NCBI GenBank assembly: GCA_965178125.1
Contig: OZ237765.1
Span: 434,001 to 498,000, forward strand
DNA: 64,000 nucleotides
Source of the DNA: Bilabrum cf. latius
Lineage: Eukaryota
Direction of reading: 5' to 3'
The notes under the pieces are model-generated. The model searched no databases, was not told where the DNA came from, and saw nothing but the letters and a program-made list of their open reading frames with translations. The stretch's first letter is position 1, and every line of letters starts with the position of its first letter. Shown here one piece after another: positions 1 to 64,000 of this stretch. The translations under genes were made by a program, and so were the position numbers.

Positions 1-3000
1 ACCCCTGTGATTTGCCCTTACCGTCCTCCCCCTCCTGGTCATCTTCAGCATCCTCCTCAGCTCTTTCGCCAGAGTCGGGCTCGCCTGCCGATTCACTGTC
101 CTTGCCGCTAGCCCCATCGTCGGCCTATCCCTTCGCCCGCGCTCCAGCGCCTGTTTCCCCGGCATCCTCGCGAGCACTACTGCCACTTCTTCCGGAGTTG
201 CTCTCGCCTTGCTTCTTGAGAGCAGCTCTATGCGCCTCAATCATCATCCGTCGCTCCTTACGCAAGTCACGTACCTTCATCACTGCGTCGAGCGCAGCGC
301 GATGAGCACTCTCGGAGTCAGCGTGCTCTCTCTCGCCCTCTGACCACGCATCCAAGTACTCCCTTTCCCTCCTGACCATCTGCTCAACGTACTCTTCCTG
401 ACCCGTTTCATCTTGGTGCCTCTGCTGCGCTGCCGAAGCTAGGGCATCGCTGTTGTGCATCGTCTACCACTCTGCCTCCACCGCCGCTGCGCGACGCGAT
501 AGAAGCTACTCGCAAAGGCCGTACTATGCAGAGAAGAGCCGCGCAGCACTCTCCACTACGGCGGCAAAAAGATGAGACCTGGCTTCGTCTATCTGTTCCA
601 ATCGCGTGTCGGCATCTTCGGAAAGCTTAGACAAAATGGCGTGCTGCAGCGAGCCAGGCGTACCCAACGCGCTCGTATCAAGTTTCCCTCCAACCTGATT
701 CGCGTCAGCTGTCTCGCCGTCAGCGTCTGTGCCCTCGCTTGTGCTCACAAGCCGAGCGTGCTCTCTATCAATTATCTCAAACTTGTCGCGGAGCAGTTCC
801 AGACGAAGCAGCCCATGCTTGGTGGACTCGAGCGCGTTCCAGATCTCCCTCCTCTGCTCATACCCCTGCTTCCACCGCTGCACGGCCTACCAAACCACGG
901 CCACGACCTGCACCCTCGGCACGTCGTGCCACAATGGACCGCTATCGTACCAGGGCATGCGGGTGCGGCCCTACAGGTCCTCCATGGACAAATTTAGGCC
1001 GCCTGCAGCACTCAGAGCTGCCACGGCAGTCTGCCTGAAGGGCATGACCACGCTCGAGGCGCCCTTGCCTCCTTTCTTCTTTCCCATCAAACCCGCTGCA
1101 ATCCGCGCCTGGGCAGCGAGGCGCTGTTCCCCGAGATCTAGGACGCTCATCAGCGCATCCACGGGGACGAGGACCCTTGCAGACTCTAGAATGGCCTCCG
1201 GGGTGAGCTCGCTGGGGTCCACTCTGGCTGGCTTGAAGCCCTTGGCGAATGCCTTGTCGTGCGTCCCGTCCTCCCTGGGCGTATCCCTCGCTGCCATCAC
1301 CGCCTTGCCCCATCGTTTCTCCGACTTGGCAACCCGCCCGCTGCTTGCGGCCGACCTCGTGTCGTCGAAGCCCATGATTGCGCTGCCTACCATTGCAGTG
1401 GCAGCTGCTGCAGGGTCGGTCATGGTGTTGTAACCCGCGTTGGCTGCCACCTTGTGCACATCTATGCCACGCACGGGCCCCAGCACCGGCCCGCCCTTAT
1501 CCATGTCCAGCAGCAGCTGCATGGCCCCGCGAGATAGCAACGGAATGGTCCTGCACCCGATCCCGGTAGCAGCGTCAGCCTCGCTGCATGAGTCGTCTGC
1601 TGCGTACATTGGGGCGTCGTGCGACACGCTGATCACCCCAGTCTGGGTAGAGGCAGATAGCAGCATGAGAAGGCAAGTGGTGATCCTTGGATTGAGGGGC
1701 CACGGCTTGAGGCTTTCATCCTGGCCGAAGAGGCCGACCGTAGCTGCGAAAGGGCTGGCCCTGCTGTATGGCAGCAGGGCATCTGGCTCGTGCCTCAGAG
1801 CGAATGGATCCCTGCGCTGGATGCTCCTCTCGCCCGACTGTACCACCGGGGTGCAATCGTTGATGTCTGCGCCCTCCTTCACGTACTTTGCCGCCTCCAC
1901 AGCGAGGCCTAGTCTCCGTCTTCCTTCAAAGTCACCTGACGGTATGACCACCTTGGCGACCTCTTCCCATTCCTGCATGCTGTCGACCCGCATTGAGGTG
2001 TGAAGACTGCCCAGGATCCCAAGCTCCTGCAGCTGCCCTTTGCTCGCCCCGAGCGCCTCCATCGCGATGCAATCCATGGCCTCCATGAGAACATGACCAG
2101 CAGTGACTTGCTCCTCGTAACCGTCAGTTGACTCGGGTGCTGCGACACCGGGTGCAGCAAGGGCCTCCGACCTGGTCCCTTCATCCGCATGAGCTATTTC
2201 ACTCGAATCACCGGCGGGTGCTCGGTCTTTCGGTTGGACTGTACTGCCGTCAGCGGCCTCCGGTTTAGAGACTGCTGCCTTGGCCGTTGAAGGGGTCGCA
2301 TCGGCCGCATTTTCCTCACGCTCTCCCGGAACACCCACGCCCTCCTCACCCGGCAGCATTCCCTCTTCGGCAGGAAGCACCTTGCTGGCCTAACCATCGG
2401 AACTGGCTTCCTAGTCCGGTCCGTCTTCGATCTAGGGCATATTCCCACGCGTGGAGACGTCTTCCTCGCCCCCTGCCATTCGGCTTGACGGCCCGTCCTC
2501 TTCACCAGCTCCTTCATCATGCCCGCTGTGGCGGTCCACCGTCGCCTGCACCGCGGTCCTGACGGCCTGTGCGTGGATCTTAGTAGCCAGCAGCCTAGGC
2601 AACCAGATCGGCACTTGCTCGGATCGCTGGAAATCGGTGAACAGCTGCAGCATGAGGCTGCGTGCCCCCTCACTGGTGGCATCGTCTGCTGTAGTCTCCT
2701 ACTACACACCGCCTGCATTCCCCGACCCAGTCGTGCCTGCCGCAGGCTTTCCCTTATTCTTTCCCTTCCCACGCCTGTTTCGCTTGCCCCTCCCTTTTTT
2801 CTTCTTGGCCTCCTGGGGCCGAGCACTAGTACCAGGCACCACTGAGGCTCCATTGCCAGCGCCGCCTGCTTCTTCCTGCACGTCTCCACCCCCGTCTCCT
2901 CCTTCGCCGTTCTTCTTCCTGGGCTATCCAAGCAGCCCAAGGCTGCTTCCATCCCTCCGAAATACGTGCTCCAGCCAATCGCTCGATCTGTCTACGACTG

Positions 3001-4294
3001 GCGGGATGGGGGGCGCCACTTCCATGTCCTCGCCCTCTTCTCCGTCCTCGCCATGTGCATCACCACCATCCCGGTGCTCTGAGCTCAACTATCCCTCCCC
3101 TTCCTCCCTGCTCTGCAAAGATCCCAGATACCCCGCAGCCCTGATCAGGCCCTGCGCCCCTCCCCTGGAGCTCTCCATGTGCCTCCTGGCAGCGCCCACC
3201 ATCGCCCCGAGTGATCGCCTCACAGACAGGTGGTACCCCCGGGGAACAACTGCGACGCCCGACTGAGTCGCAGCCCGCACCGTGTCGCCATGCGACCGGA
3301 GAATCCCGCTGGCCATCGCACTAGTCAGCAGCTCGTCCTGCCAGAACCGCTTGTCCTCGCCCGGCTCCAGCTGAGCCACCGTTGCGTCCATTGAGGGATC
3401 CACAAGGCCGGGACCCCACTGCAAGACTGAAGAGTGCGGCTCGCATGGGTGCGCGATCCCTGCTCCCGCACCCGCACCTGGTCCTGCTCCCGCACCCGCA
3501 CCTGCTCCTGCTCCTGCTCTTGCACCTGCACCTGCTCCTGTCCCAGTACCAGTCGTACCAGCACTAGTGCTAATCTGCCCAGCGACAGCCTCGAGATCTA
3601 GCCGACTGGCTGGCAGCACCGCCGCTGTGACGAGTGGGACTCTAGGCCGCTCCACCCTGGACATATCCTAGAGGCCTGTCTGCTGGTGCTGGTGCTGGTG
3701 CTATGCGACAGCGTCTGCCTCTAAGCCTGCGCCCGAGGCTGGCTGGGCGGAATCTCTCCGAGGATCGCGTGTGCTGTCATGTGCGGCGTCGCTGCTGGGT
3801 CCTGTTTCAGAAGAAGTCTTCGTACGGTGGCGTGCTTGCTCATCCAGTCGACTGGCCAGCTGCACCGCCGTGGGAGGTGCAACGAGACCGAGCATCGGCG
3901 GGAACGCTGCGACGCAGGCAGAGACGCGATAAAGCAACTGGAGGAGGGCTTAAACAGGCGAAGCTCAGACAACGAGCAGCACCACACCAAAATATCGCTT
4001 ACCGTCATCTTCGGGTGGGAGTTGAGCAAACAGTGTGTCCAAGCCACCGAGCCAAGCCTCTCCTTCGATCTCTCCATAGGAGTAGAAGCGCCCCCAAGCC
4101 GCTAAGGCCCATTCCCTCCCTAGGCTCCGCATATTTCTGATCTAGTCACGAAGTACGATGCCGTTGATTGAAACATCTTTCAGCCAAGAAGTTTCGCCAG
4201 ATTCCAGCAGCTCTGCAACCGCAGCACGGGCCTCCTCAACTGATATGGGCTCTTCATCCGGATCAGCTCTCCCTCGACCAGCTTTCTTGCTCAT
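1..4294 (-). CDS. Large hypothetical protein (>1400 aa, low-complexity and coiled-coil-like C-terminal part), 3' end runs off the window
   Basis: Minus ORFs 4142..4372, 3701..3937, 3089..3664, 2432..2653, 971..2380, 524..883 and 125..460 share one frame. They are separated only by TAG (about 16), apart from one probable intron 3949..4002 (GTAAG...TAAG) that holds the only TGA/TAA. ATG at 4294 (MSKKAGRG). No family recognised. Confidence 0.75.
3461..3545. repeat. Hexamer-based coding microsatellite giving a (GA)n Gly-Ala run
   Basis: Repeated cctgct/cctgca/cccgca units, translated on the minus strand as GTGAGAGARAGAGAGAGAGPGAGAGAG. Confidence 0.8.
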
Positions 4295-4608
4295 ACCTGC
4301 GGGATTGAACGTGAAGGAATGTTGAACCAACGTGCATTGTCGAAATACTCCACGGTTTACGTGAGGTACCAATGTCCGTAGATCCTTGTGTAAACCCTGA
4401 TCCCTTACGTGAAGTATACCGTTGAACTGCTCGTGCCAATAGATGATTAATATAGTTTGTCAAACCGTGTAGAGTGAACGCTCTCTTTGCGTGGATAATG
4501 GGGTGGCTTTTCCTTTAGGGAATGCGCGGCGCCGCCGGATCAATCCAGAGTTGCGGAACCGCTCGCCCAGCTGGATCAATGCACAGTTGTAGTGAATACT
4601 CTTGAGTT

Positions 4609-6319
4609 ATGGCGGGTGTAGCTGGTGGCCCTATCTCGCTAGGTAGTGATGATATTGATATGGCCAGTATTGTGAAGAAGTATGGCCTGAATGATAATGT
4701 TGGGCACAAGATGGTTGCAATGCGAGACTACTCGGTGAACCCCAGGCTGCGCTATCGAACTATCAAGTCTGTGAATGGACCTCTCGTGGTTGTGGATAAT
4801 GTTAAAGGTCCAAGGTATGAGGAGATCGTACAGATCTAGCCAAGGGACGGGCCGCCCCGAACTGGACAGGTGCTCGAAATCAGCGGAAGGAAGGCCGTGG
4901 TGCAGGTAAGATACTCACAGCTTGGGATGCTGGCACAACCGATCAAATATATGCTTAACTTGTGTGGTGCTTCACTCGCTCCAGCACATCCCGCAGGTGT
5001 TCGAAGGCACGGACGGGATTGACAATACGCACACCACGTGCAAATTCACTGGAGAGACGTACCACATGCCAATCAGCGAAGAGATGCTTGGCCGCTAGTT
5101 CGATGGGAGTGGCAGACCGAAAGACGGAGCCCCCCCGATCGTAGCGGAGGACTATTTGGACATCATGGGAAAGCCGATCAACCCGTGCGCCAGGGAGCAT
5201 CCCCGCGAGATGATCCAGACCGGAATCAGCGCCATCGACACGATGACGTCCATCTCGCGAGGACAGAAAATCCCCCTTTTCTCTGCAGCGGGGCTGCCCC
5301 ACAACCAGATTGGCGCGCAGATCTGTCGCCAGGCCTCTCTGGTTGACAACAGCAGCACCACAGACAGCCATCCTGACAACTTTGCCATCGTGTTTGGAGC
5401 CATGGGCGTCAACCTCGAAACCGCGCGTTTCTTCGAGGAGGAATTCACAAAGTCCGGCGCCATGGAGAACACAGTTCTGTTCTCTAACCTCGCCAACGAC
5501 CCCACCATCGAGCGCATCCTCACTCCGAGGCTGGCCCTCACCACAGCAGAGTACCTGGCCTACGAGAGGGAGATGCACGTCCTGGTCATCCTCACTGACA
5601 TGACGGCCTACGCAGATGCTCTCCGCACAGTCAGTGCGGCGAGGGAGGAGGTTCCGGGCCGCAGGTCGTTCCCCGGGTACATGTACACGGACCTTAGCAC
5701 GATCTACGAGAGGGCAGGCAGGGTCAGGGGCAGAAACGGCAGCATCACGCAGCTGCCCATCCTGACCATGCCGAACGATGACATCACGCACCCCATCCCC
5801 GACCTGACGGGCTACATCACGGAGGGGCAGATCTACGTGGATCGGGGCATGGACGCGCAGAAGATCTACCCGCCCATCAACGTGCTGCCGTCGCTGTCCC
5901 GGCTTATGAAGACTGCCATCGGGGAGGGCAGTACTCGGGAGGATCACGCGGACGTCGCCAAGCAGATGTACGCCGCCTATGCAGAGGGCAAGGATGCAGC
6001 AGCTATGCAGACCGTGGTGGGCGCCGAAGCACTCACGGACGACCAGCGGAAGTACCTCGAGTTTGCACAGAACTTCGAGAAGCAGTTTGTGCGGCAGAAG
6101 CACGACGAGAAGAGGAGCATCGTGCAGTCGCTTGACCTTGCGTGGGACCTGCTGCGGCAGCTTGGACGGAGCATGCTCACCAAGATCAGGACCTCGCACG
6201 TGGACAAGTATTTCGCCAAGACGCAGCGAGGGGCACCGATCGGGTCTGCGGCTTCGGTGGCGGAGGCGATGAGCGGGGCTGGGGGGGCTGCAACTGGGGG
6301 TGCAGCCGGCGGGCACTGA
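4609..6319 (+). CDS. ATP6V1B: V-type H+-ATPase subunit B
   Basis: Motifs [90 protein letters not shown]. Intron 4906..4996 (GTAAG...GCAG). In-frame TAG at 4837 and 5096. TGA stop. Confidence 0.97.
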
Positions 6320-6479: not shown

Positions 6480-9400
6480 TTAGACCAAGCTCTCGACGCT
6501 GGGCTGCTGGAGGCCCTAATCAGCGGGCTCTGACCCAGACCCGAACAAAAATGCCTCTAGCGCAAGATACAGCGCATCCAACAGCTCATCATGAAACAGT
6601 GACTGGAGGCTCCGCGCCTCGACAACCTGCTGCAGCTGTGCCCGAGGCATCGGTCGGTACGGAAGCGCCCACGGCAGCCGGTGATCGAACAAATCCGCGT
6701 TGGCAGCTATTCCAGGGGAGCTCGCGTTGTTCCTCCAGACATCATCGAAGAATACCATCCACACCTGTGCCACGGGACTCAAGCACAGCATCTTGGCGCG
6801 TGCGAAAAGAAATACAAGACCGTTTGCATGCTGCTCGCACATGTCCCACAGCAAGCTCTGCGACTGCCTCTCGAATACGTGCTTCCTCAGCGTACCAGGG
6901 GTGCACGACAGATTCTTGTAGATGTATACATACAGCTCGGGGTCCATCAACTCGTCGTTCTCCTTCCGCCTCTGCATCTTTCGCAGACGCATGCGGGACA
7001 GCAGGCCGGACACGGTCGCTGGAAGCCTCTGCTGGATGAGTAGCTGGTTGTCAGGGTCAAAGAGAATATCGCGCAGGGGCTGCGTCACGTTGAAGGCTGG
7101 GAGAATTTCCAGCTCTTCATGGCTGAGCAACGCCTGGCAGTCGTCCAAGACGACGTGCCGCTTGGTGTGCGGTGCCAGTGCGACACCTTTGCCCTCGGTC
7201 ATGTGCAGGCTAACGCCAAACCCAGGACTTGATGGATCGCCGGCCTTCCTTCTCTACAACCGGAGCATCCCATGGGAATAGTGCACATCCACCTGCACCG
7301 TTGTCTGTCGCAGCAGCGTACGCGGCCGCAGCGTTTTCTAGTCGATGTAGATCTCTTCGCCGTCCTCGACCACGTGGGCCTCCGTCCGGTTGACAGAGTA
7401 TCTCACTTCGCACCCGTGCAGCGCCCTTATTTGTTCCCTGACCTGTCTCCGTGCCACGATGCCGTTGTCTACGTTCCTTGCCTTAAGTGCACCCAGATCC
7501 CCGTCTCGAAGCAGAACGTGCGCGTTGGCATCGTCGTACGTGATGGTGCAGCGGAACGGCCAGGGGTCCACTCGCATGGACCCGAAGCAGCTCTTGCTCG
7601 GCTGGGTACCGTCGTCAAGAGAACCGTCGTAGAAAATGTCGGGACCCTCTGCGTGCTACATCACCCATCGACGGAGCGAGCGGATCCGCGGAACGAGGCT
7701 ATTGGCTGCGTGGGACCTTGCAGTGTGATCCCCGCCAGCCTTCTTTACCTGCTCCTTAATCTCCCGCCAACGGTTGCCAAGCTCCCTGCCGTACGCATAC
7801 CCCAGCAAGGCGTCCCAGAAAGAGAACCAGAACCGCCTCGGTATCTCTCTTGTTAAGTCCCAGCCGAAACCAGCTAGCGCCAGCCGGTGCGCGTCCGTGA
7901 GACGCCATGCGCCCAGCGCACCCGGCGTCTCTTGCATGGGCTGCGCAGGCAGCGCAACGGAAGCAACAGACACCCTACGCGAGTGTCGTCCTAATGGCGC
8001 ACCTGCATGCGCTGCAGTCGCTAGGCTCGCATCGCTAGCAGTCGAACCAGCTCTTTCACCATGTGTCACTATATCTCTGGTATTGCTGGCGGCTTCGTGG
8101 GCATCATATGCACCCCCTATCGCATGTATTGTACCGTGTGCACCTAGCTTATCATCACTTGTTAACGGTGACTTTGGCGGGTCGTTTGCCCTTCCGCTGT
8201 GCCGACTAGCCGACACTGCCACAAGAACGTCTCCAGAAACAAGCTGGTCAATACCCGTGCCGAACAGAGAGAACCTCAGCCTTGAAAGCCCAGTTGCGTG
8301 CTCCAGCCTGGCCCACTCTCTCGGCGTTACCATCGCTGCGGCAGCGAGCCCCTGCATCACCAGCAACAGCATCAAGACCGCGGACACGATGAGCCCAATC
8401 AGCACGGCTCCTGGCGTGCTTACTTCGTACGCGAGTGGCAAGCTAGTGCGCTGGTAAGGAACCACGGTCGCAAGCAAAAGGGCCACAATGGCAAGGATGG
8501 CTGCTCCTGCTCCCTCCACGAGTCCCACAACGGGCTGCCTCCGACATTTTGGCACCCGTACATCGTACTCGCTGCCAGGTCGTACGCCGCAGTGCGTGGT
8601 GCAGCAGGAACAGTAGCAGCATCGAGGCATGGTCTGCGGGCAGCAGGCACCCGCACATCGATCACCGCACCGCCGTTCACAACCAGTGCACCAGCACTGC
8701 AGCAAGTCAATCCTCACACCACCAGAACCGGCGTAGCCTACCAGAGCGCGCACTCCCAGAAGGCCGGCGGCCATCACGAAGGCAGCTGCAGGTGCCGTGT
8801 GCAGCCCCTCAGTGAGACCCAGAAGAATGATGAGGTAGGCCACTCTGGCAACGGATGCATACTTCCAGCGCCTATGGTACTCACTGTACAGCTGCGCAAA
8901 TGGTGACTGAAGCGAGGCTGAGTCGGACGATAGTGCCTCCAGGTACGCCTGGTCTAGGAAGGAGTCTGCGCGCCGCTGGGCAGCCTGCATGCGCTGCATG
9001 GCCCGGAGGTCGTGCTTCGGCTACTAGCTGAACGTAGTGTTGGCGGGAGAGTTCGCAACCGGGTCAATCGCTCTTGGTGGGACCGCATTGTGGGACCCGC
9101 CAGACCCTGCAGTTCTCCTTGATCCAACATTTGCTGCCACTGATGTGTGAGGGACGCTGACTAGGCTTCGAGCTATGCTCCCCCCATCTTCTCCTTCGAT
9201 TGACCCTTTGCTACGATTTGTTACATTCTACGCACCCTTTGCATCGTCTTCATCAAATGCTGCATCGAACCCGATCGCGCTGTCAACGTCGACGTCTTCA
9301 GCCTGCGACTCGCCGCCTTGTGCGGCGGCAGCGGCGGCAGCAGCAGCGGCTTCAGCTTTCTGTCTCGCATCTGCTTCTTCTTTGGCAATCGCATCTGCAT

Positions 9401-12356
9401 GACCCTGTACCGCAGCTGCCGCACTGTCAGCTGCAGCGTTCTGAATTGCCTGCCTCATGCTATCAGGCAGTGGGGGCAGATCCTGTTCGCTTGGTGCGCT
9501 GGCGTGGATGCCGAAACACATGTAGATTGGCACCGCCACAGCAACCAGCAGCAGAATAATGGTGGCAGCAGGCAGGTAGGCCGCCTGATACGTCTCTGAC
9601 AGTAAGCAATCGCACTGCCACTGCTCTCGAAACGGACCTTTCCTACTTCCTGACGAACCCGGCCTACCTTCAATCAATTCCACCACAGCCGCGTCTACAG
9701 CCTGAAGATCTCTTTCAGAGTCCAGCAGCAGCTGCATGGTAGACACATCCGAAGGGGCGATGTAGGACACGCCTGGGAACTGTGGCAGGCACGCAGCAGG
9801 TGCTGTCTCTCGCATCACGTCCAGGTAGAACCGCAGCACGTCTGGACTGATGCTCGGGCTGGACGTGCTGTTATCCTGGCTGTTGGATGCTGCTGCTATT
9901 GCCGCTGCAGCCGCCACGGCATCAGGGTTGTCCTGCTCGAAAGAGTTCAGACCCACGCCGCCGCTTGATCGCAGCACTATATCGCGGCCGGTGCGTGCAT
10001 GGCACGACACTACATCAAACGACTCCCTTGCGGCTGCAAATGCCAGCACTGCCACGCACGCTGTGACGAGCATCCTAAGAATAGAAACCATCCATTCATA
10101 CTTGGGAGAGTACACGGGTGTGGCGGTGGCATGCGGAACAGTGCCTGGGTTGCTTTCGCCAGGGTCGGATGACGAGACTCGCCTTTGCCTGCCACGTGTG
10201 CTGACGTCAGTCTCGTGCGCAGCGCGGATTTCCTCGGCGGAGGCAGGCTGGATGCAAAACTCAGCCACTCCCACAAAGATGGCTGCCAAGAGAAGCACAG
10301 CCAACAAAATAAAGAGAGTCGGAGCCTGCCCCCAGCGGAAGGCAGGGGCAAAGTCAAGCCCTGTCGCCGAAGCCACGCCGCCCCAGAACGCCATGTACCC
10401 AGTCCCAGTTCCTGCAGATGCTGGCCGTGTCAGCAGTACGCCAGCAATTTGCCACGTCTCCAGTACTGCCAATCCCAGCCCTGAGGCACCCAACCGGTAG
10501 CAGCACGGCCAGGACCAGATCATAGGGTTGAAGGCACCGCTCACTCTGCGGAGGATGCTGCTGACCGAGTCTTGCTCGACCGTTGGTGGGCCGCTATTGT
10601 CATCGTCTCTAGGTTCTTCTACAACGGATAAACCAAGCTGTATCTTCGGATTTCTTGGGGCCGCAGGAGCATCCGCAGGACGGAATGCATTGCTAGAGTC
10701 TGGCTCTGGGATTCTCAAATACCCGTCCATGCCTACAGGGTCCGGGCTGGCAGGCCGGGACGGAACCGCGAGCGCGTCTTCGAACGTGACCCGCCTGCCT
10801 CCATGGTCCTCCTAAAATCCACGTTCCTTGACTCCATCATACGCTAAACCCTTTGCGTCAGACGCAGACGCCAGGTACACCTCGTCGCCTTCCCTCCCAA
10901 CCAGCAGCCCCTCTCTCGAGTCTAGCAGGGGACCAGGCTCCCAGAACTGCTGCTGCTGTCGCTGCTGCTGCTGCTGACCAGAGTGATCGCCAGCTTCACC
11001 ATCGATAGTGTCGAACTGATTGTCCACACAGGACCTCTAATCAGGTCGTCGGGCGGCCGCAGGGGTCGCAGGGTACATTGTCTCTCGTAGTCTGCCGGGC
11101 GACGGAAGGTCCATCTCTAAAATAGAAAATCGGGCCCTCCTAGCGGGACTCAGGGCACTTTCCACCTCATGCCCAGCAGCTGCTCCCGTGATCTGATCTG
11201 AGTCATGCTCGGTGGGTCCCCCCACTCTCGGCGATGACGGCTAGTCTGCGCCCATGGACGGTGCAGTGTCGGGGTGCATGCTGTTGGAGAGTGATGCAGC
11301 GCCGCCTTCCATTGTGACCGCGGCGTCATCTGTACTGACCAGTTGGCTTGCCTCATCGGAGGCTGCACCGGCCTGCTCTGCTGTGGCAGCGCCGCGTTGT
11401 TCCCTGGGTGAGGGGGGCTCTGGCGCGTTCCTTTGCATCGCGTGCACGTCGTCTTCAATTTGCTTGAGGTCGGCAGACGGCAGTGCCACTGCTTTCTCGA
11501 TGGGGGGGAACCTCGTCCCACTGTTGCCACCGCTTGCATCGATGCCGTGGGCGATGCTGACACCGCTTTCCGTCCCCCCTCCGGTAGTCGAAGTGCCCCC
11601 ATTGCTGTTCCTCTCTCCCGGCCTTCGAGTGCCGCTGCCCCCTCCTTCCCTTCGTCTTGGGGGTGGTATTGGCGGGCGCTTGGAGGGCGGTGGGGCCCCC
11701 CTGCCACGACCAATTGATGTGGCCGTGGCATAGGTGCCCACTGCTGCAGGCATGCTTGAGACGTGCATGCGAGGTGGGGGCATGACGGTCCGACTGGTGT
11801 TCGTGCCAGCTGCGCCCACACTCGTCACACCAGATATATCAGCTCGATGCACGGGTACCTCGGCCTATGCCGATGCTCTCCTCCCTGATTTTTCTGGAGG
11901 TCCCCCGCTGGCGTCTTGCGCTGCCAGTGATGACCCACCCGCGGCGAATCGTAGCGCCGGCGGTCTCACCTTGTGCTGATCGACCGCGTGGCTTCGAGGA
12001 TTCTAACGAAACAGCGCAAGCCCGCTCGGGGGCAGGGATGGCATTGTTGGTGTGAGTACTGGCGAATACGAGTCTGGTGGTGGGTGGGTGTAAACGTGAG
12101 TGTCAAACGGCTCCCACCTTGCCAGCTCTTTGCACCTGCGACCAAGCCATCCAAGATGAGCGTCGAGTGCGACGCTGGCACTGGCCGATGCAACACGAGC
12201 AGCACCGTTCCTGTCAGCGAGCTAATATTTGTCAGCAGAAAATTCACTGACAGACTCATGAACACTATCCTCGAGCCGCGACGAGGACGAACCGCTGATG
12301 CGATCTCTTTGCTTGCCATCCGTTGCACTCGGCACATTCCTCGTGCCTGGGCTCAT
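6480..12356 (-). CDS. Large multi-pass membrane protein (~1950 aa), function unknown
   Basis: Minus ORFs 11241..11852, 11037..11225, 10812..11027, 9228..10730, 7656..8999, 7338..7577 and 6516..7202 are one frame broken only by about 13 TAGs. Several hydrophobic helices and a globular C-terminal domain. TAA stop at 6480. Start ATG 12356 is tentative. Confidence 0.75.
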
Positions 12357-12669
12357 GTCCTGCAGTACATGGGCAATACTTGATGCCCTATGTGTTTCAC
12401 GATCATGATGCTCTGTGATTGCAAGGCTCGGCCAACCATGTTGCTTTGCAGAGCCTGAACCAATTCTACCTTCGATCACCCCAAGCCGTGACTGTGGTCT
12501 TGGGAATGACTTTCCTGGCAGCATTGCCATACTTGGACGAACAGTATAACTTAAAAGTATATCATTTGATCCAATTATTCTCAAGCCTTGGCCCCTTTCA
12601 ACAAGTCTAATGCAACTGCCGGTGCGCAACGAGTCTGTTGCAGCATCGTGCAGTGCAACTCGGGCAAAG

Positions 12670-18600: not shown

Positions 18601-18839
18601 TCGGAGGCTACCCATGACTCGCCGAGCAGCTGCACCCGTGAGAGTGAAAATCCCCAAAAAATATAAAATCGGCATTATTGATAATTCATAATTGCCTAGC
18701 CTCCCTGCGATACCGGTCTCACCTGCATGCAGAAGCCAGTATCGAACTCCTCATCGTAAGAAAACTCCGTTGCAGCAGCTGCATCGATGGCAAGGAAGAG
18801 CCCGAGCAAATATGCCGACACATGTAAAACCAATCGCAT
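12670..18839 (-). CDS. Class C (7tm_3, GABA-B-like) GPCR with signal peptide, LamG-like, cadherin/Ig-like and pappalysin/FBXL4-like ectodomains
   Basis: Signal peptide MRLVLHVSAYLLGLFLAIDAA then GTGAG donor. LamG-like WHLLTLAWD...IDDVRVFSTALS. 7TM motifs RAQPRF, CTAKTFRV, YLAVVTRNV..ES. Frame from about 18140 to 12670 is broken only by TAGs (18079, 17353, 16699, 15541, 15448, 15382, 14827, 14734, 13675, 12895). TGA stop at 12670. The 5' introns are not fully resolved. Confidence 0.85.
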
Positions 18840-22200: not shown

Positions 22201-22884
22201 GTTCGACGAAACCTCGTGTTTGCGCTGGGCTGGCTGCCTCTCGTAGAGGAAGGCGCCGGCGCCAAGATGGCTCCGCAATGCCTCAAGTACTGCGTCGAGC
22301 ACTGCAAGAGGACCGACACGATGAATTCCACGTCGCACGCCATGGTAGATAATGCTGTCAGCTCGGTGCTCCGCGTTTTGCGGACGTTTCCCTCGGCTGG
22401 CCCAGCGGACAAACTGGTAGAAACTGCAGTGTCTCAGCTCCCGCTCAGGGTTGACTTCTCGGAAGCAGGCGAGATTCTGAAATCGATGGTGATGCTTGCT
22501 TCAAAGGGGATCGGGGCAGCGAAGAAGCACCTGCCCCGAGCACTCACCGAGGCCGCTCGCATGATTTCCGAGTCGGTGGTTGTCGAGCACATGCCCAGAA
22601 AGTACAAGCTTGTCGCGCTGCAGACCATCGCCAAGTTTGCGGAGCAGTCGTCGTTTGGTGCAGTGATCGGACAGTGCTCCCCTCAGGTGCAGGCGGTGGT
22701 GCGGGCCCGCCTAGATCTCGTCAAGTCGTTGGGTCCCCATGCAGCCATCGATGCTGCCTTGCCAGAGTCGGCCGTGACACCAGCCGGGAGTCCAGTGAAG
22801 GGTGGGGCGGGAGGTGGGTGGGGAGCCAGCAGCCCCGGGGGCGCGTCTGCTGGTGGGTCTCCTGCAGTGGGCGGAGGAAGGTGA
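19203..22884 (+). CDS. Importin-beta family karyopherin, importin-4/Kap123-like (HEAT repeats)
   Basis: IBN_N-like VRHMAAINLRK..W, WPELL, HEAT motifs DKHPAVRASFCYCIGALS and VRRNLVFALG, DNAVSS. Intron 19677..19809. In-frame TAG at 19491, 19509, 19641, 19650, 20530, 21274, 21982. TGA stop. Confidence 0.85.
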
Positions 22885-43939: not shown

Positions 43940-43944
43940 CCCTT

Positions 43945-54142: not shown

Positions 54143-57100
54143 TTACGATAGCTCTCGTGTAAGCACAGTCACGGACTCCACGTGCGGCGTCATCGGGAAC
54201 ATGTCCACGGGGCGGGTGCACATCGCTCGGAAACCAGAGCCGCCATCATGATCATCGGACCCCTCTGCTAGCACCCGCAAGTCCCTCGCCAGAGTGTTCG
54301 GTTCGCACGACACATACACCACAACGTCTGCCCTTGAGCGCAAGAGCCAGTCCCTTGCAGACTCTGTGAGGCCAGCACGCGGCGGATTCACAACGACGGC
54401 GAATGGTCGTAGCGGAGCACCTGCTTCGTGCTCGCCCTGCATCTCCATCATGCGAGCAATGACCAGCGGCACCTGCTCACTGCGAAGGTCGAGTTGCCTC
54501 GCCTTCACCCTGTTAGCATCCCCGTTTCTTTCGGCCACCCGATCGAATGCTCGCACGGACCCCGTCTCAAGCTCAAGGCCGAGCACTTTCGCCGATGGGA
54601 ACGAACGGGCGATCTGGTGTGAAAACAGGCCGGTGCCGCAGAACAAATCAACCACAAGAGGTGCACCGCTTCTGCTAGAACCCGAAGACGGTGCAGGTGG
54701 CTGCTACAGAGCCGAGTGCAGGCGACCGTGCGTATCCCAGTGCCATGCAAGGCTTGCGACCACCTCGCGAGCGAGCACGCTGGCACCGAGGGAATTCACC
54801 TGCGAGAAGCACCCGGCGGGGGCGTCCAGGACCAGAGGCGCCCTGGATGCCTTGATGCTAAAACCGGAGATAGGGGCAGCGGGCGCATGCCCCGCCCGTG
54901 CCTGCACACTGCCAGTGGCAGGCACTTGCTCCAGATCCCACGCCCCCACCACCTGGCGCAGACAGCCTGCACTGCTGCCCCTAACATCATTGATTTTGCC
55001 CCGGAGGTACTCTCGTCTCCAACTGATCATGTTTGTTTGCACTATTTCAGCGTTGGACATCGGAACTGTGACGGGTGCGGGCGCGACCAGAGGCTCATCA
55101 TCGCACCGTTCCCCATCGGAAACAGGGAACATCTTCTCCATGTGTCTCCTGTAGTCGCTTTCCCTCTCTTTTGGGATCGAGCGTGGCTTCCATCCGACCC
55201 GGACGAAAATATCACGGAAGCCTCCGCTGCCAGTGGCAGTGTGCTGCTGCTAGCCGCCAAATCGTTCACGAAGGGGCTTCACCAGCCTTTCTCCCAAGTC
55301 TATTTCTCGCTGAAATCTGAGAAAGGAGCTTTCATGCAGCCATATTATCACTTCTAGCGCGCTGTCCTCACTATGCTCGCTCTTGGTTTCAGCATGCGCT
55401 TGCTTGGTCCGGTTGCTCCTTGCTGCTGAGCGCTCCTAGTCAATCTTGCCCTCGTCCAAATCAGACCCGGGGAATCCCAGCTCTACTAGCGCTGCGTTTG
55501 CCACATGGTTGACATCGCGGCTGACCTTTTCTTTCCATGCCTATTCTGCGCTCGGGTCGTGCTGCAGCGGGACATACCTGGCGTGCTCGCTCAAAGACTC
55601 GGCATCGATCGATCCATCAGTCGCAGCAGCTGCGCTTGTTTCCGAGGAGTCTCCGGTGTTCGACACCTCGCGTATCTTGCCTTTGTGTACGGCATGCGTA
55701 GCATGCCATGCATGCACCATGGAACCAGGCGCGGAGGATGATCCTGCTGATGATGCTTCGCGCCCCGTGGACACCGGCAGCAACCGCCTGACGGGCGCGT
55801 GGGCACTGGCTCGTTCGGCACTGCCATGCAGGAATCCAGCCTCCGTGACATCTGGCGAATGCATCACGCGAATCTCCACGCTTTGTATCATATCCAAGCT
55901 GTCACTGGGCTCTGCGGCTTCACTGCCCGCATTTGAGCTAGCGTTCGCAGACCCGCCACCACTGGCACTGAAGCCGTGTCTCGAAACCGAAAATCGGGAT
56001 TAGTTCTGGGATTAGTTGAGTGGGGATTCGATTCGAGACAAATTTCCGACGGATTAACTTGAACTGAGCCTGACATGGTTACATGAGCTGCTAAGGTAGT
56101 TTCAAGGCCATGAGTATTATCTTTGATGCTTACATTTAGTTTGAAGAGTAGTCTGGGTAAAGTTTGATGATGTTTTGATAGTGCCTGGACGCTTCGACTC
56201 GACACGTGCCACATTTAATCAAGAGAAATTGGGTTAGGGCTTTGGACTAGTCTGGCGTAAATCCCGTCGTGATAGATAATCTCATGTGTTCCAAAACACC
56301 AGGAGGCTGTGTGGTACCATTCTCACGGGCACCATTGAGCTGCTACGCCCTTCCAGGATTCCGTTCGAACCTCCCTCACGTGTCTGCTTGGGCACCTGCT
56401 TCTTTGTGCAAATTGATCGAACTCTACGACTATGTCAACGTAAAGTTGATTGTTCAAATTAATTAACGCAAGCAAAAGCACTAGCAAAAAGGCCTTCTTG
56501 CCGCGTGGTATGCTGGTTGAAGTTAATCCAGAAAATTTAATTCGAACCGAGCACGAAATTGGATTAAAATGTGCAATTTAATTATTAATTTAATCCGGAT
56601 TCGGAGTTTCGAGACAGCACTTGACAGCCCTTGCCTTCGCCTGCCCTCTCGCCTTGCGCTTTCGATTGCGAGCTGCCGACTTGCGGACTGCATCGGATGA
56701 GGACGGACCCACCCTGGTGCCTCGCAGAGCATCCCGCACCATCCCGAGAGCAACGCTCGCCCGTGGGTCAAGTAGCGTGCACTATTCGGGTTCGAGGACC
56801 TTGGGCAGGAACACGTCCCCGTGCGACCAAGGCATGTAGCCCAGGGCAGGGCCAGGACCAGTGCATGGATTTGTTTGCGCACGAGCACCTGCAGCGCCCG
56901 ACTAGTGTTCCCCCGATTCGCTGCCGCTTGCGCAACCCCCGGTCCGGCCAACCAAACCGCTCGCTGCATCAGGGCCGTCACCGGCTGCACCAGGGCCGTC
57001 ACCGGCAGCCATACCGGAACCGCCGGTGGCAATCCCAGTCGCATGGACCGGTAACCGGGTGGGCCGGGGTACCCACGGTTCCGCCGAGATGGAAAAGTCG

Positions 57101-57864
57101 GCCTTGTTCCGGTAATGCAGCTGCTTTGGGGATGCGAGGGCGTGCAAGAGCACGAGGGACTGGTCCATCTTGCCTGCATGCATCTGGTACAGGACGTCCT
57201 CGATCTCTAGCCCAGCCGGCGCTTGAACGGAGCTGCTCGTTGCAGGACTACTATGCCCGGCGGGTTCTTTTGCCTGCTACGAGTCCTGCGAGCTCTCAGT
57301 GCCACTGGAATGATGAGAGGCGAGAGGTGACTGCGCCGCGCACGCAACACCCGCGCCCTCCAGGGCCCTGCGGACTTTGGCGGCCTTAGCCAGTAGCTAG
57401 AGTTCATAACTTGTACTCTGCGACGTGCATCCGCCGCAAGCGCCGAAACTAGGGCAGGGCGGCTCCGCTGCAAGGGGTCCTGGGTGCACGACCTGCAGCT
57501 GGTCGCTCCCTGCGAGCACCATGCTCCTCCGAAGCTTTCCAAGCCGAGTGCCCCCGCGCTTGGCAGAAAGATGTGAAACTTGGGCGACGAAAGTCGCGCC
57601 TGCAGGGACGCCTTCGACGCAGAACTTGCCTTCGGCTGCTCCCTGTTGCAAATGAACAGCAGCAAGGCCGGTCTCAGGGTCAAGCTCGTAGCTGGCAGTA
57701 GCTCTCAATTGAAAGCGACACGGAGACGGCTATGACTTAATTCGATTCCTTCCCTGAATATGGCCTGAATACGAAGAACCGCTAGCCCGACGTATCTGCC
57801 GCCCGGATTTGCTGGATAACATGCGCACCAATCGCATAGCTCTATCAACACCTCGGAGATCCAT
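54143..57864 (-). CDS. RNA m5U methyltransferase, RlmD/TrmA family with Fe-S motif
   Basis: PPCPSFGACGGC..Q..SYEL(TAG)L.AK, HYRNKADFS, FSQVN, VDLFCGTG, VVNPPRAGL, VYVSCEPNTLARDL, DMFPMTPHVE. Several TAGs. Interrupted at 55968..56620 by a TIR element/intron. Ends TAA TGA. Confidence 0.9.
55968..56620 (-). mobile_element. MITE-like TIR element forming a putative GT-AG intron (introner-like)
   Basis: TGTCTCGAAAC at 55977 and GTTTCGAGACA ending at 56616. Imperfect inverted similarity extends about 90 bp with GGATTA motifs. AT-rich interior. Flanks GCACTGA / GCACT(T)GA. Minus-strand AA|GT...CAG|T splicing restores the frame. Confidence 0.7.
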
Positions 57865-58040
57865 AGTCAACCGTAAATAGAGTGTTATTTCAGCATCACC
57901 TGTTCCAAACCGAGAGTGGAACAAATGGTGTTGCGGCGCACCATTAAACTCAAATGATGAACCTTCCCTCGTCCACCGCTGGCTGCAGTTCGGCGGTACG
58001 ACCAATCGACAGCACCCACGCCTATCTTTACGAGCGACCT

Positions 58041-61000
58041 ATGCGCGGCTGCTCCCTTGTAGTGCTAGTATTAGCTGGTATAGTCAGTGGGCACGGTAGG
58101 CATGGAACGAAAGGCTGTGGGTACAGCGAAGTGGCACACTTGGAAAATCCAGTGACCGTCCCAGTCGAGTACGGTCCTTCTAGACCAGGCCGAGAACTGC
58201 AGACGACATTCGTCCCCATCGAAACTGCACATGTTAATGGGGACACTGCGAGCATCCGCGTAGAAGTGAGCAGGATGCTAGCCAAGCTGGGATTGTAGGA
58301 GCGTTTCCAACGACTGATGAAACCGGTGCTTGCTCTTTTGTCAAGCTAGATTGGGTTGACAGCGCTGCATGTGTTTAGTATGTGGTTCTATTGCATCTAC
58401 ACAATGTCATTGAGTCGACCAAAGCCCTATTCTATCGAACAAAACGCGCTCGAATGATGTCGGTTTCCTCGCTTCGGTTGCTGCTGTGCAAATGGCCCAG
58501 AAAGGCGGCGCATCCTCCTAGTATGCGCACAGCTCCCGTACAAGCTATGCGTTTGCTCTTTATTTTGCAGTTGGTGTACGACGTGCTCGATGCCGGGGAC
58601 CTCCTCCCTTCGGACGGCAGCACGCACCGTATGTGCGGCGAGCCGTGGGCTGGCGAGACGATCATCGCGCAGTCTTTCGCCACCGGCCAGCTGCAGTCGC
58701 ACGCCGGATGCGAAGAAGTAGATTACGCGCACAGGGGCAGCGAGCGCTACAACCAGCTCAAGCAGCGCACTGAGTGGGCGGGCCAGAAGATCGCCGAGCT
58801 GCTCCGCGTGAAGCCAGCGACCAACGGGATCACCCTGTCCAGCTTCGTAGAGGCAAGCTACTCCAACATCTCCGCCACATCCTACCCGAACGCAGACCTA
58901 GTGGTCATCGTGACGGCCCGCCCCACGCCCGGGATCAGCCTGGCGGGGTACGCCTCCTGTCTCCAGCGCGACCAGTACCGCCGATGCACCGTGGGCTCCC
59001 TCAACTGGGTGCCCCGCGCCCTGGATCCGGAATCGAAAGATTCCCCCCCGGTGGTAACCGACGAGCGGCACACGGCCCTCCACGAGCTCTCCCACGTGCT
59101 GGGGGCAGTGCGGCCGGACCGCCAGTTCATCGACGACACGGGGGCCATCAAGCAGGACGCCGACGTGTACACGGTCGCGCCGGCCCTGCCCAACGACCCG
59201 TCCGCCCCTCAGGACCGACTCGTCCAGTACATCCGCACTCCCAAGGTGCTGGCCATGGCCCGCGCCCACTTTGGGTGCGCGGACCTGCCCGGTGTTCCTC
59301 TCGAGGACACCAACGTGGGCAAGGGGTCTCACTGGGAGGCGCGGGTCCTGGGGCCCGAGTACATGAGTTATGGCTCCGGATCCGGGGAGACCTTCATCAG
59401 CGACCTGACCCTGGCCTTTCTCGAGGACACTGGGCACTACGTGGCCAACTACAGCGCCGCGGGACGGTTCCTCCCCTCTACCGCCCAGGAAGCCGCCGTG
59501 CTTGCCCAGAGCTTCTTCACCAGCGACTCGGAGCCGGAACAGGTGGACCCGGCCACGCCTCCCCGCTCCCCCGGCGCGATGCGGTTCGGGCGGGACGTAG
59601 GCTGCGACTTTGTGTTGGGGAACCCCCGCAGCTGGCCCGAATCGTATCGCTGCAGCAACCACCAGGAGTACATCTGCACGAGCGACAATCGCATGCAGGC
59701 GGTGTGCGCGCTGCAGACTGGGGTGGTGTCCGAAGAGGAGTACTCGTTCAACTGCGACGCGAACAACGGGAGGTGCGCTCCCAACCCCGCCAACCCCGCG
59801 TGTACGGGCGGCAGCTGCCTCATCCCCCCGGAGCAGAGGCCCTTCACGGACGCCGAGGCGCAGTCCGCCTTTGACGGGTTTACGGTGCAGACGGCAATCA
59901 CCGCGGGAAACACGGGGGGATTTTCGTCCTCGATGGACTACGCCGCGGTACCAGTTGGGTACTGGTCCTGCCTGGACACGGAGGCGTCCAACGGTACGAG
60001 CAGCCGTGTCGCGGAGGAGAACCAGGGCTTCGATTTCTCCTCGCTGGTGACGGGGCAGGAGAGCAGCCAGGCTCAGTTCGGGGGCCAGGAGAGGTGCAAG
60101 GACTGCAGGTGCTTCGTGTCGAGTCTCGTGGCCGTGACCGACTTGGCTCGATTCAACCCCTCTTTCACTCGGTACGGCCTGTGCTACCGGTTCAACTGCT
60201 TTCGGTCCGACTACCTGCAGATCGCCATCCGGAGCCAGACGGATCGGAGCGTGTACTGGTACCAGTGCCCCACCCTGGGCGGCAAGATCTACATCGCGGG
60301 GTTCAGCGGGTCCTTCCACTGCCCCCCTGCGGAGTCCTTCTGCACGCAGGAGGACGTGACGGGGATAAAGTACCCCGAGACCGACAGGCTGCTGGAGCTT
60401 TACATTTTTATCGGTGTATCATGCGGAGTCCTCATCCTGGCCGTCGTGTGCATGTGCCCGTGCACGAGGGAGCCCATCGTGCACTGCCTCAAGCACTTCT
60501 GCGGCGTGTACACGTTCGACCCCGCCAGCGACAGGTATCAGATCGACGAGGACGAGAACGAGGGGACGAGTCGGCGGGAGCGGCGCTACAGCCAGCAGGG
60601 GACGGAGAGCGTGTACGGCAAGGCGGTGCGTCGGCCGATCGAGGACCAGCCCACGGCCGTCACAGTCATGCTGGTGGTCAACACGCTGGCCCTGGCCGGG
60701 TGTCTGGCCCTGACAGGCTTTAGCGCATACGCGGCCACGCAGGGAACGCTGAGCACGGCTGTTCCGTTCATCGGGATGGGCCTCGCTGGCGTGATCACGG
60801 CGTGCTTCGGGCTGTTTGGGTCCCGGCAGGAGTCGGAGGGTGCTAACTGCATGCTGCTCATCTACTTTTTCATCGTGCTGTGCGTGCTGCTGGGCGGCAC
60901 GTGGACGTCCATCGACTACTTTATCATCGAGGAAGGCAACACGGAGTCGTACGTGGAAAACAACTGGGACGTGTTCCGTGACACGCTTCCATCCGATGCG

Positions 61001-62131
61001 TACGACGCCACGGCGAGCACCGAGACCTAGATTGAGCAGGCAGCTGACTACGTGGACCAGTACTTTCTGGCAGGGAGCATCGCACTGCTGTGCATCGCCG
61101 GGCTGTTCCTTGTGGCGGCGGGCGGCGCCGCGGTGATTATCCACATTAACACCCTGACGGCGAGCTTCTACACTGTGGAAGCCTACGCGAGCGTTGTCCT
61201 CGGCATGCTGGGTCTCGTTGCCGGGGGCTACTTTATCGTGCAAGACTTCCCGCGAGTGGGCGCCGCCGGACTGACCATGGGCGTGCTGCACGTGGTGGCC
61301 GGGATCTTGTCCATTCGGGCAGAGACGCTGCTGGACACGTGCTACATGTACGTCGCTGCCGCCGTGTAGCTGTGCATCGCCGGGGTTGCCGTGTTTGGCG
61401 CCTATGTTGCGTTCGAGATCGGGAATTCAGCCGAGAAGGACGTCGATGACATGACGGAGGCGCAGCGGGCCGACATGCGCGAGGTACTGCAGGACACTGG
61501 GGTGACATTTGGAGACCAGATAGACGAGGATGGGCTGCCTCGGGCCATCGAGTTTGTGGCGTATAACGGCGCGATCGCGCTGCTGGCCGACGCTCTGCTT
61601 TCTGCGATCGCGCTGGTGGCCGGCATCGCGATGACGTCGTTCACGGACGGTTTCCAGGAGACATACGGCTCCGAGTACAAGCAGTATCAGGAGAGGCTGA
61701 CCCAGCGGCAGGGGAGGGCGCCGGCGACAGGCCGGGGCAGAGAGACGGCGGCGGCGCACAAGCGGGCTCAGGCGGCGGCGAGGCAGTAGCAGAGGGAGCA
61801 GCAGATCCAGGCAGCAAAACTGCAGCAGCAGCAATAGCAGCAATGGGAGCAGGAGCAGGTCGCGGCCAGGGGGATGGCCGCGGGAGGCACTGCGGGCGTA
61901 CCTGGCCTGCACCCACCAATCTCGCACCAGTATCACAACTCGGGGGGCACGGCCGTGGACTACGGTGTCGGTGCTGGAGCGCATCACCCCGGCATGCACC
62001 AGCCTCACAGAGGTGCAGGTGGGCAGCATCCGTACTACGCGGGCGGGGTGCAGCCCTCGGCTGGCTTGCACGGCGTGCGGCCAGGGCTGCACGGGGGGAC
62101 CGCTGCGCAGCGAGCGGGGTACATGGCGTGA
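58041..62131 (+). CDS. Leishmanolysin/invadolysin-like M8 metallopeptidase fused to about 9 TM helices (two tetraspanin-like blocks) and a Q/G/H-rich tail
   Basis: Signal peptide. Intron 58266..58570. TALHELSHVLG, TPKV..AR.HFGC..L.GVPLED, SHWEARV, EYM, LTLAFLEDTGHY.ANYS. TAGs at 61028, 61367, 61787, 61835. TGA at 62129. Confidence 0.9.
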
Positions 62132-63170: not shown

Positions 63171-63635
63171 CTTGAAATTCGGCTTCCTCAGATCTCCTAG
63201 GAAAAAATATGCTTCACCGGCTTCGTGGTTCGTCGACCGGATCAGTATACCAGACTTTAACACGTTACAGAAAACCAGCCTACAAAAAACCGCTTCCACG
63301 GCATTCCTCTACACTAGGTGAGACGATTGCTATCATAATGTATCTTGAATGTTACTACAACTATATCGGACTTGTTGTGGATGGTTGGGGACTGAACACG
63401 GGCTGGTTGCTTGATCGGTGGTTCTTTCGTCCGATCCAAGCGGCCGTTCCAATGATCCACCCCACCCAAATTGCGATGATTTTGTGCACCTTAGCATTGC
63501 GCTGGGATTATATGCAATCATGCTGTGGATTTTGGATATCCAACGCTTGTCTACCCGCGCTACGATGCATCACACGGGGGTGCAGCAGTGTTTCTGAGTC
63601 CACAACGGTTCTTTACCTCCCATCGCAGCCCAGCC

Positions 63636-64000
63636 ATGCTCACAGCCCTGGTAGCTGTTTCGGCACTAGCCGCCGTAGGAAGCTGCAGCCCCCTCTGGGA
63701 CTACGTCAACGATCCGGCGTCCAAGGCGAACTACTCGTACTTCGATACGGGCTACAAGCTGAACGGCACCGCCCTCAACGGCGTGAACTGGACGGGGAAC
63801 CTGCTCAACATGACGAGCGGGAACTGGATCACCCCCGAGTACTCGGACAAGTACACGTGGACCCACCAGGCCTTCGTCGTGGTGCCCGAGCACATCCAGT
63901 CCACGGAGCACGCCGCCATCTACGTGACGGGAGGCGGCAACGGGGACGGCCCCCCAACGGAGGACTCCGAGGACGTCCTTTTCTGCGTGGCGATCGCCAC
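63636..64000 (+). CDS. AprA/PqaA-like (PhoPQ-activated pathogenicity-related family) secreted protein, 5' part only
   Basis: Signal peptide then PLWDYV, LNMTS..W, WTH...VVP, AAIYVTGG.N...P. Open to the end of the window. Confidence 0.75.
   Translation, partial: MLTALVAVSALAAVGSCSPLWDYVNDPASKANYSYFDTGYKLNGTALNGVNWTGNLLNMTSGNWITPEYSDKYTWTHQAFVVVPEHIQSTEHAAIYVTGGGNGDGPPTEDSEDVLFCVAIA

Follow-up and report, generated by a model that had tools for sequence, protein, structure and literature searches.

Is UAG, a stop codon in the standard genetic code, read as an amino acid in the genome from which this locus comes? The locus is a segment of contig OZ237765.1 (positions 434,001 to 498,000), called here the window, by which we mean the whole stretch of 64,000 nucleotides that was analysed. 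An original prediction had proposed that UAG is a sense codon for glutamine (Gln) in its genes. Our analysis makes it very likely that the window belongs to the nuclear genome of a microbial eukaryote with a high GC content (0.59) and few introns, in which UAG is an ordinary, moderately rare Gln codon (~14% of Gln codons), and in which UGA, the commonest terminator, and UAA still act as stops.

In-frame stop codons in the window

The base composition of the window is 59% G+C. Under the standard code, its longest stop-to-stop open reading frames (ORFs) measured 883, 680 and 527 codons. When TAG was counted as sense, the longest ORFs became 2101, 1852, 1749, 1316 (open-ended), 1297 and 1031 codons, in agreement with the earlier claim that ORF fragments join into very long proteins. 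Counting TAA as sense left the longest ORFs nearly unchanged (883, 680 and 546 codons) and produced no meaningful joining. Counting TGA as sense lengthened frames too, but indiscriminately and whatever the frame, as no stop triplet is commoner than TGA at this composition.

We assembled a coding set of 16 segments (13,044 codons) picked by homology, transcript contigs or ORF length. This set contained 83 TAG, 0 TAA and 1 TGA in frame, the sole TGA being located in the 5' leader counted in upstream of V-ATPase B exon 1. The other two frames of the same DNA contained 179 TAG, 77 TAA and 483 TGA. The reading frame has been cleared of TAA and TGA, as expected of stops, and TAG occurs in frame at approximately its off-frame density. 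More than 60 TAGs interrupting intact, intron-containing genes had been counted by eye in the original prediction, which also held that UAG alone had changed, and both statements are upheld by this tally. Frames remained open for up to 2101 codons without TAA, TGA or frameshift, and TAG was in frame in every long gene, including that for V-ATPase B, a protein conserved across eukaryotes. With TAG counted as a Gln codon, the supply of Gln codons was 83 TAG, 444 CAG and 82 CAA, a TAG share of 13.6%, and the frequency of TAG was 0.64% per codon.

Individual sites were also as described. The seven sites singled out beforehand (4837, 5096, 24120, 61787 and 61835 on the plus strand, 57397 and 3701 on the minus strand) were all TAG in the frame, strand and context given for them, and the importin gene, for which seven TAGs had been claimed, carried exactly seven (19491, 19509, 19641, 19650, 20530, 21274 and 21982). 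The PfkB gene provided a control, as it reads normally under either code. This gene also had the most biased codon usage, with 11 CAG and 0 TAG versus 20 CAG and 2 TAG in the V-ATPase B gene and the overall TAG share given above. Genes with high expression may avoid TAG, which would fit a codon read by a scarce tRNA.

TAG codons in spliced transcripts

Four sequencing runs of one sample contain the whole stretch and are its probable source. We compared the window with contigs from three runs outside this source, X5 and X6 (study P2) and X7 (study P3), each of which contained 68-77% of the window's sampled words. The RNA or DNA labels of these runs are guesses, and transcript origin was judged solely from introns bridged by contigs. 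Contigs of all three runs skipped introns 4902-4992 and 19677-19809 exactly at GT..AG. Within the sulfatase gene, contigs of these runs also skipped four introns lying in 23124-23842; on the minus strand they skipped CT..AC introns near 4293-4406 and 18162-18723. These intron-skipping contigs come from spliced transcripts.

Of the 33 in-frame TAGs in 4001-24000, 32 were covered by contigs of the three runs with zero differences from the window. The 2101-codon ORF was matched by X5 contigs over 6429-11547 and 11597-12589 with 0 differences, and the sole sequence difference in these 20 kb was a C>G change at 7133 in one low-depth X7 contig. Since independent spliced contigs match the window across its TAGs, RNA editing, splicing-out of the codons and C-to-T miscalls, the three outcomes named beforehand as fatal to a sense reading, are excluded in 4001-24000.

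The organism labels of X5, X6 and X7 (coded B and C) differ from that of the probable source (coded A), which may reflect inconsistent naming of the organism or its co-habitation with other organisms. In all runs, CAG/CTG-rich stretches at 10945-10979 and 13146-13166, in the two largest ORFs, showed a summed depth of up to 3228 with many chimeric joints and loose ends. These depth peaks are low-complexity cross-mapping and not rearrangement.

A metagenomic relative with in-frame TAG

A scan with the window's G-protein-coupled receptor (GPCR) protein recovered two metagenome contigs, L001 and L002, which share 99.7% identity with one another across 3,367 nt. L001 1-3817 and L002 1-6130 are orthologous to window 14100-20740 and syntenic with it, carrying the GPCR gene and the divergently oriented importin gene. 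Over 1,931 aligned codons, this relative showed 64.7% protein identity with the window, and the conservation continued across the TAGs. Within the same codons, the relative had 15 in-frame TAG and the window 14, with 2 sites shared, and the relative had neither TAA nor TGA. As a relative at ~65% protein identity has the same habit, in-frame UAG is a lineage-level trait: it belongs to the lineage and not to a single assembly. The lineage of the window and these contigs is thereby also seen to be present in environmental data.

The codons opposite TAG in this alignment bear on its meaning. Site 15541 was dropped from the count as it is contained in the search pattern of the scan. The 24 TAG-versus-sense pairs that were left paired TAG with Gln in 10 cases (nine CAG, one CAA), with glutamate (Glu) in 5, threonine (Thr) in 3, histidine (His) and serine (Ser) in 2 each, and arginine and glycine in 1 each. 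The Gln background in the alignment was 4.3%, giving a binomial p = 2e-8 for 10/24. Log-likelihoods of the pairs, calculated with the alignment's own substitution table, were -53.7 for Gln, -74.9 for lysine (Lys), -76.4 for Glu, -89.7 for Ser and below -93 for Thr. Ordinary Gln codons in the same alignment were partnered with Gln in 57% of cases, with TAG in 7% and with Glu in 5%.

The amino acid assigned to UAG

Two TAG sites had been placed at conserved Gln residues of known enzyme families, and both placements held up in alignment. Site 24120 (YLAY-TAG-AVH) aligned with a Gln of human arylsulfatase B, and Gln was present in 66/66 homologues. Since the query for these homologues was another exon of the gene and did not include site 24120, their retrieval could not favour Gln at this position. 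Site 57397, predicted to be the conserved Gln of RlmD/TrmA, corresponded to Gln in 2/2 solved RNA uracil-methyltransferases that match (PDB 2jjq and 1uwv). The repeat contexts in which TAG had been noticed were likewise present in the sequence: within CAG/CAA runs at 61787 (CAG TAG CAG) and 61835 (CAG CAG CAG CAA TAG CAG CAA), and in a Gln-His repeat at 3701 (TAG CAC CAG CAC CAG CAC CAG CAG).

We aligned homologues of V-ATPase B (120), importin (150) and sulfatase (81) to the window by tblastn with TAG scored as '*', a procedure that favoured no residue. For the 13 TAG columns in which 10 or more residues were present, the log-odds were then added up. Gln obtained +8.1, followed by Thr (+0.3), His (-1.7), alanine (-2.4), Ser (-2.8), Lys (-8.4), leucine (Leu; -17.8) and Glu (-19.5). 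Gln was the commonest residue at importin sites 19509 (8/42), 19641 (13/29) and 19650 (6/29) and at sulfatase site 25298 (8/21). The TAG sites of the leishmanolysin gene and of the C-terminal part of the sulfatase gene lie in poorly conserved stretches and added little. Among database fragments, a 96%-identical Logan protein fragment has Gln at site 18079; a 77%-identical fragment has Gln at 15541, which was left uncounted as this site is in the metagenome search pattern. Gln neighbours were more frequent for TAG than for any other codon (17/197, versus 86/1031 for CAG and ~0.04 for most others), in counts taken from a greedy ORF set with a few antisense shadows.

On these alignments, Gln is by far the best-supported meaning of UAG. 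UAG is decoded, most likely as Gln, in at least two related species, and UAA and UGA are not decoded there. The genome-wide scope of the reassignment is extrapolated from 64 kb and ~10 kb of the relative.

Alternative readings of in-frame TAG and a proposed decoding mechanism

Several observations weigh against the reading of UAG as a regular Gln codon with UAA and UGA kept as stops, and they are set out here with the alternatives on which they bear.

One alternative is a dual UAG, read as Gln inside genes and as a stop at some gene ends according to context. We regard this as unlikely. Context-dependent dual meaning of stop codons has been proposed for Condylostoma, karyorelicts and Blastocrithidia (UAA). 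Context-dependent stops are also proposed in Amoebophrya sp. ex Karlodinium veneficum (PMC12005148). The ends of genes in the window that are relevant to this question are few: four are anchored by homology (V-ATPase B, importin, arylsulfatase and PfkB), to which the 2101-codon ORF, terminating at TAA, can be added, and the role of TAA as a stop in particular rests on a small number of ends. In the 2101-codon ORF the last TAG precedes the terminal TAA by 11 codons, in the 1749-codon ORF it precedes the TGA by 29, contigs cannot reveal the ends of translation or of transcripts, and TAG might also terminate some genes. However, all four anchored ends are TGA, and at 0.64% per codon chance should place one or two TAGs no more than 30 codons from an end in a set of ~15 genes. 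The ambiguous codes known so far, moreover, usually affect more than one stop, whereas TAA and TGA are strictly absent in frame here. These data agree with the earlier statement that no gene seems to terminate at TAG, although they test it weakly. The importin gene ends with two consecutive TGA (22882-22887), and the V-ATPase B gene with TGA, one codon and a second stop (6317-6325). These double stops have the appearance of tandem back-up stops, which might be relevant if termination is altered.

A regular Gln codon would require both a decoder and a release factor that does not compete with it. UAG would be read by a CUA-anticodon tRNA that descends from tRNA-Gln and is charged by GlnRS; this tRNA would leave UAA unread, C34 having no wobble to A. 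An eRF1 that had lost efficient UAG recognition and kept that of UAA and UGA would no longer compete at UAG. We infer this pair, tRNA-Gln(CUA) and an altered eRF1, by analogy with other UAG-only codes (PMC11687900, PMC5304391). The window does not encode eRF1, an Rfam search of the window gave 0 matches, and a tRNA scan found 0 tRNA genes in the window or L001/L002, ~74 kb in total.

The absence of tRNA genes from these sequences would also fit a second alternative, in which UAG means Gln and no dedicated tRNA(CUA) exists. Here tRNA-Gln(CUG/UUG) would read UAG with a first-position mismatch, helped by a weakened eRF1 or a modified tRNA. An analogue is known from Blastocrithidia, in which UGA is read by a shortened-stem tRNA-Trp(CCA). 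Readthrough of UAG by tRNA-Gln is documented in standard-code organisms (PMC13192750), and no suppressor tRNA was obtained from Hartmannula sinica or Trochilia petrani, both reported to use UAG as Gln (PMC11687900). We nevertheless think such decoding improbable. At 74 kb, the sequence scanned is far too short to expect any given tRNA gene, and 83 TAGs in 13,044 codons, V-ATPase B included, demand efficient decoding. UAG reassignments for which sufficiently complete genomes exist have CUA-anticodon tRNAs (PMC11687900).

A third alternative is that UAG specifies another residue, such as Glu, Lys, Thr, Leu, Ser or a non-standard amino acid (e.g. pyrrolysine). UAG codes for Leu, Ser and Glu are known in other eukaryotes (PMC11687900), and Glu was the second commonest partner of TAG in the relative (5/24). 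Several columns did not favour Gln. The V-ATPase B sites had been put forward as TAGs interrupting an essential gene, and TAG is indeed read through there, but the homologues carry other residues and give no support to Gln: Thr dominated at 4837 (84/109, with Gln in 2), and site 5096 (n = 122) had alanine in 35, Ser in 31, Thr in 16, valine in 15, isoleucine in 11 and Gln in 1. Importin site 20530 was mostly Ser or asparagine (Gln in 9/137), and site 21982 had Gln in 0 of 81 residues. When the invariant site 24120 was left out, the lead of Gln in the column log-odds narrowed to 5.0 versus 3.0 for Thr. The search queries were translated with Gln at TAG, so a slight bias to Gln-bearing matches is possible. 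Over all columns, however, Gln scored +8.1 and Thr +0.3, with Lys, Leu and Glu clearly negative, and the ortholog pairs gave -53.7 for Gln versus -74.9 for Lys, -76.4 for Glu and below -93 for Thr. Together with the Gln at 24120 (66/66) and at 57397 and the TAGs within CAG/CAA runs, this makes another residue very unlikely.

The last alternative, that the TAGs are untranslated (C-to-T errors, edited or spliced-out codons, or pseudogene lesions), is hardly credible: nothing positive was found for it beyond the fact that TAG is one transition from CAG, so that systematic miscalls could mimic the pattern, whereas intron-free contigs from independent runs of two other studies agree at 32/33 TAGs, a different organism from two metagenomes has 15 in-frame TAG with 2 shared with the window, frames are open to 2101 codons, and 64.7% conservation runs across the TAGs.

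Gene content of the window

Features with coordinates are listed in Table 1. The V-ATPase B gene was identified by matches to Pfam ATP-synt_ab (1.4e-73) and to PDB V-ATPase B (7e-189). The GPCR-like gene, whose ortholog is found in L001/L002, has small 5' exons, which include 18297-18411 (TAG at 18363) and 18496-18629 as well as others further upstream. The in-frame TAGs of the arylsulfatase B-like gene are at 23700, 24120, 25016, 25121, 25298 and 25379. The methyltransferase gene is made up of two long ORFs on one strand, 56590-58083 and 54143-55999, which contain 10 in-frame TAG, including 57397 (CGGC..SYEL-TAG-LLAK). A MORN-repeat protein is also among the identified genes.

Table 1. Genes and long ORFs of the window, in order of position.
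Feature	Coordinates	Strand	Evidence and structure
Open-ended ORF, 1316 codons	2..3949	-	No Pfam family; 15 in-frame TAG, including 3701
V-ATPase subunit B	4601..6319	+	Exon to 4901, intron 4902-4992 (GT..AG), exon 4993-6319; stop TGA; TAG at 4837 and 5096
2101-codon ORF	6480..12785	-	Multiple transmembrane stretches; no Pfam family; 13 in-frame TAG; ends in TAA
Family-3 GPCR-like gene	12670..18827	-	Pfam 7tm_3 1e-25; main exon 12670-18228, 1852 codons; stop TGA; 11 TAG
Importin-beta (IPO5-like) gene	19203..22884	+	Pfam HEAT_EZ, TPR_IPO5; exon to 19676, intron 19677-19809, exon 19810-22884; stop TGA; 7 TAG
Arylsulfatase B-like gene	23217..25489	+	PDB 1fsu; several exons, cysteine-rich insert; stop TGA
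842-codon ORF	25871..28399	-	Ser/Pro-rich, C-terminal transmembrane segment; no Pfam family; 6 in-frame TAG
PfkB-family kinase gene	34373..35311	+	Pfam PfkB 2.3e-66; GC3 (third-position G+C) 0.88; 11 CAG, 0 TAG; stop TGA
1749-codon ORF	45101..50350	+	No Pfam family; 8 in-frame TAG; stop TGA
RNA uracil-5-methyltransferase (TrmA/RlmD-like) gene	54143..58083	-	Pfam tRNA_U5-meth_tr 2.1e-11; PDB 2jjq, 1uwv
Leishmanolysin (M8) domain protein	58238..62131	+	Pfam Peptidase_M8 4.7e-24; 5 in-frame TAG, including 61787 and 61835; stop TGA

The leishmanolysin ORF has an unusual architecture, fusing the M8 domain, a cysteine-rich region, a tetraspanin-like four-helix membrane part and a Gln-rich tail; the tetraspanin-like match (E 1.8e-5) is below the Pfam cut-off. 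The product of tandem paralogues on the minus strand (30981-31985 and 32841-33806) is a small protein that spans the membrane several times and matches COPI_assoc weakly (E 0.0017); over a 281-nt exon, which ends at a GT splice site, the two genes share 79% identity. A comparison of the two for TAG/CAG exchanges was uninformative, the conserved exon being without TAG.

Lineage and significance

The best matches of the window's V-ATPase B were 70-75% identical, and their names, where given, were alveolate or stramenopile. In a FastTree phylogeny of V-ATPase B, the window and the database sequence P0050 adjoin a clade in which one sequence bears the label Symbiodinium sp. KB8 (SH-like support 93). 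A second dinoflagellate-labelled sequence falls elsewhere in the tree, and since sequences so labelled fall apart, the database labels are unreliable. This tree, being of a single gene, is not decisive for placing the lineage. A protein atlas query returned prokaryotic ATPase clusters only.

A more specific proposal, which we hold tentatively and think somewhat more likely to fail than to stand, is that the window and L001/L002 represent an undescribed, non-ciliate, GC-rich lineage of at least two species ~35% apart in protein, which would have reassigned UAG to Gln independently and kept UAA and UGA. If true, this would be, among the cases in the available parts of the literature, the second non-ciliate code with UAG alone as Gln after that of Iotanema, and the first in a GC-rich genome with UGA, not UAA, as the main stop. 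In a GC-rich genome with UGA as the main stop, 'codon capture' (loss of UAG under AT pressure) would therefore not be the route.

The reading of UAG as Gln also has practical consequences. If this genome or its metagenomic relatives were annotated under the standard code, most long genes would be broken up. Two database fragments, P0124 and P0125, start at the first Met after a TAG position, and P0124 (77% identical) also stops just before the next TAG. These boundaries are the expected output of a standard-code gene caller.

Codes that split UAG from UAA are rare and bear on the question of why both codons usually change together. Such joint change is attributed to the wobble of a UUA anticodon, as opposed to the specificity of CUA (PMC11687900). 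A GC-rich lineage that ends its genes mainly with UGA would add a case from a mutational background unlike that of AT-rich ciliates. As genomic DNA, transcripts and a second species exist, the questions of the tRNA and of eRF1 can be put to a direct test.

Comparison with known variant codes

In 'genetic code 15' of crAss-like and other phages, TAG is read as Gln as in the window; this is a phage-encoded suppressor strategy in bacteria and unrelated to a nuclear genome with spliceosomal introns (PMC9523058). Codes in which UAA and UAG (UAR) both mean Gln (NCBI table 6 type) resemble the window in their change from stop to Gln, presumably through suppressors derived from tRNA-Gln, and differ in that UAA is also read. 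They are reported from many ciliates, hexamitin diplomonads, Streblomastix, ulvophytes and Amoeboaphelidium (PMC5304391, PMC11687900). The in-frame UAA that would accompany UAG under such a code was not found in the window (0 TAA, versus 77 off-frame). Aphelids were considered in view of the algal context and set aside, as the UAR = Gln code reported for them is a misfit with 0 in-frame TAA (PMC5304391).

The ambiguous codes of Condylostoma, Amoebophrya sp. ex K. veneficum and Blastocrithidia place all three stops in frame; in the window, TAG alone is in frame. Amoebophrya sp. ex K. veneficum resembles the window in having unedited in-frame stops in essential genes (PMC12005148). It is an alveolate, and the window's V-ATPase B has some affinity to dinoflagellate-labelled (alveolate) sequences. 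However, its genome is AT-rich with UAA, UAG and UGA all in frame, whereas the window is GC-rich with UAG only, and it was rejected as a match on these grounds (PMC12005148).

Other codes have likewise uncoupled UAG from UAA, with a different meaning: Leu in the rhizarian exLh and three TARA ciliate metagenome-assembled genomes, and Ser in Scotinosphaera (PMC5304391, PMC11687900). The column and pair scores reject Leu and Ser for the window, and neither the columns nor the ortholog pairs favour Leu, Ser or Glu, the residues with which UAG aligns where such codes are recognised.

A nuclear code of the NCBI table 15 type, with UAG alone as Gln, is on record from Iotanema spirale, Protocruzia tuzeti and two phyllopharyngean ciliates (PMC5304391, PMC11687900). 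In H. sinica, T. petrani and P. tuzeti, as in the window, UAG without UAA is assigned to Gln from its occurrence at conserved Gln positions (PMC11687900). These UAG-only ciliates prefer UAA as a stop and have a GC content of 27-54%, in contrast to the TGA at anchored ends and the 59% GC of the window (PMC11687900). The window's V-ATPase B did not group with that of Paramecium, which is weak single-gene evidence. The gene-sized chromosomes of ciliates are also unlike a 64-kb contig with ~15 long genes.

Our literature search, with supplementary files outside its scope, returned no report of UAG as Gln in a GC-rich non-ciliate other than Iotanema. Iotanema spirale (Fornicata) shares with the window the use of UAG only as Gln and the retention of UAA as a terminator, and UAG is a minority codon in both, at ~8% of Gln codons in Iotanema versus 13.6% in the window (PMC5304391). 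Iotanema is an anaerobic metamonad known from a transcriptome, whereas the window is GC-rich genomic DNA with introns, and the window's V-ATPase B groups with dinoflagellate-, oomycete- and labyrinthulomycete-labelled sequences and not with metamonads. Set beside these systems, the window is a further and probably independent instance of a known variant code and not a new kind of code.

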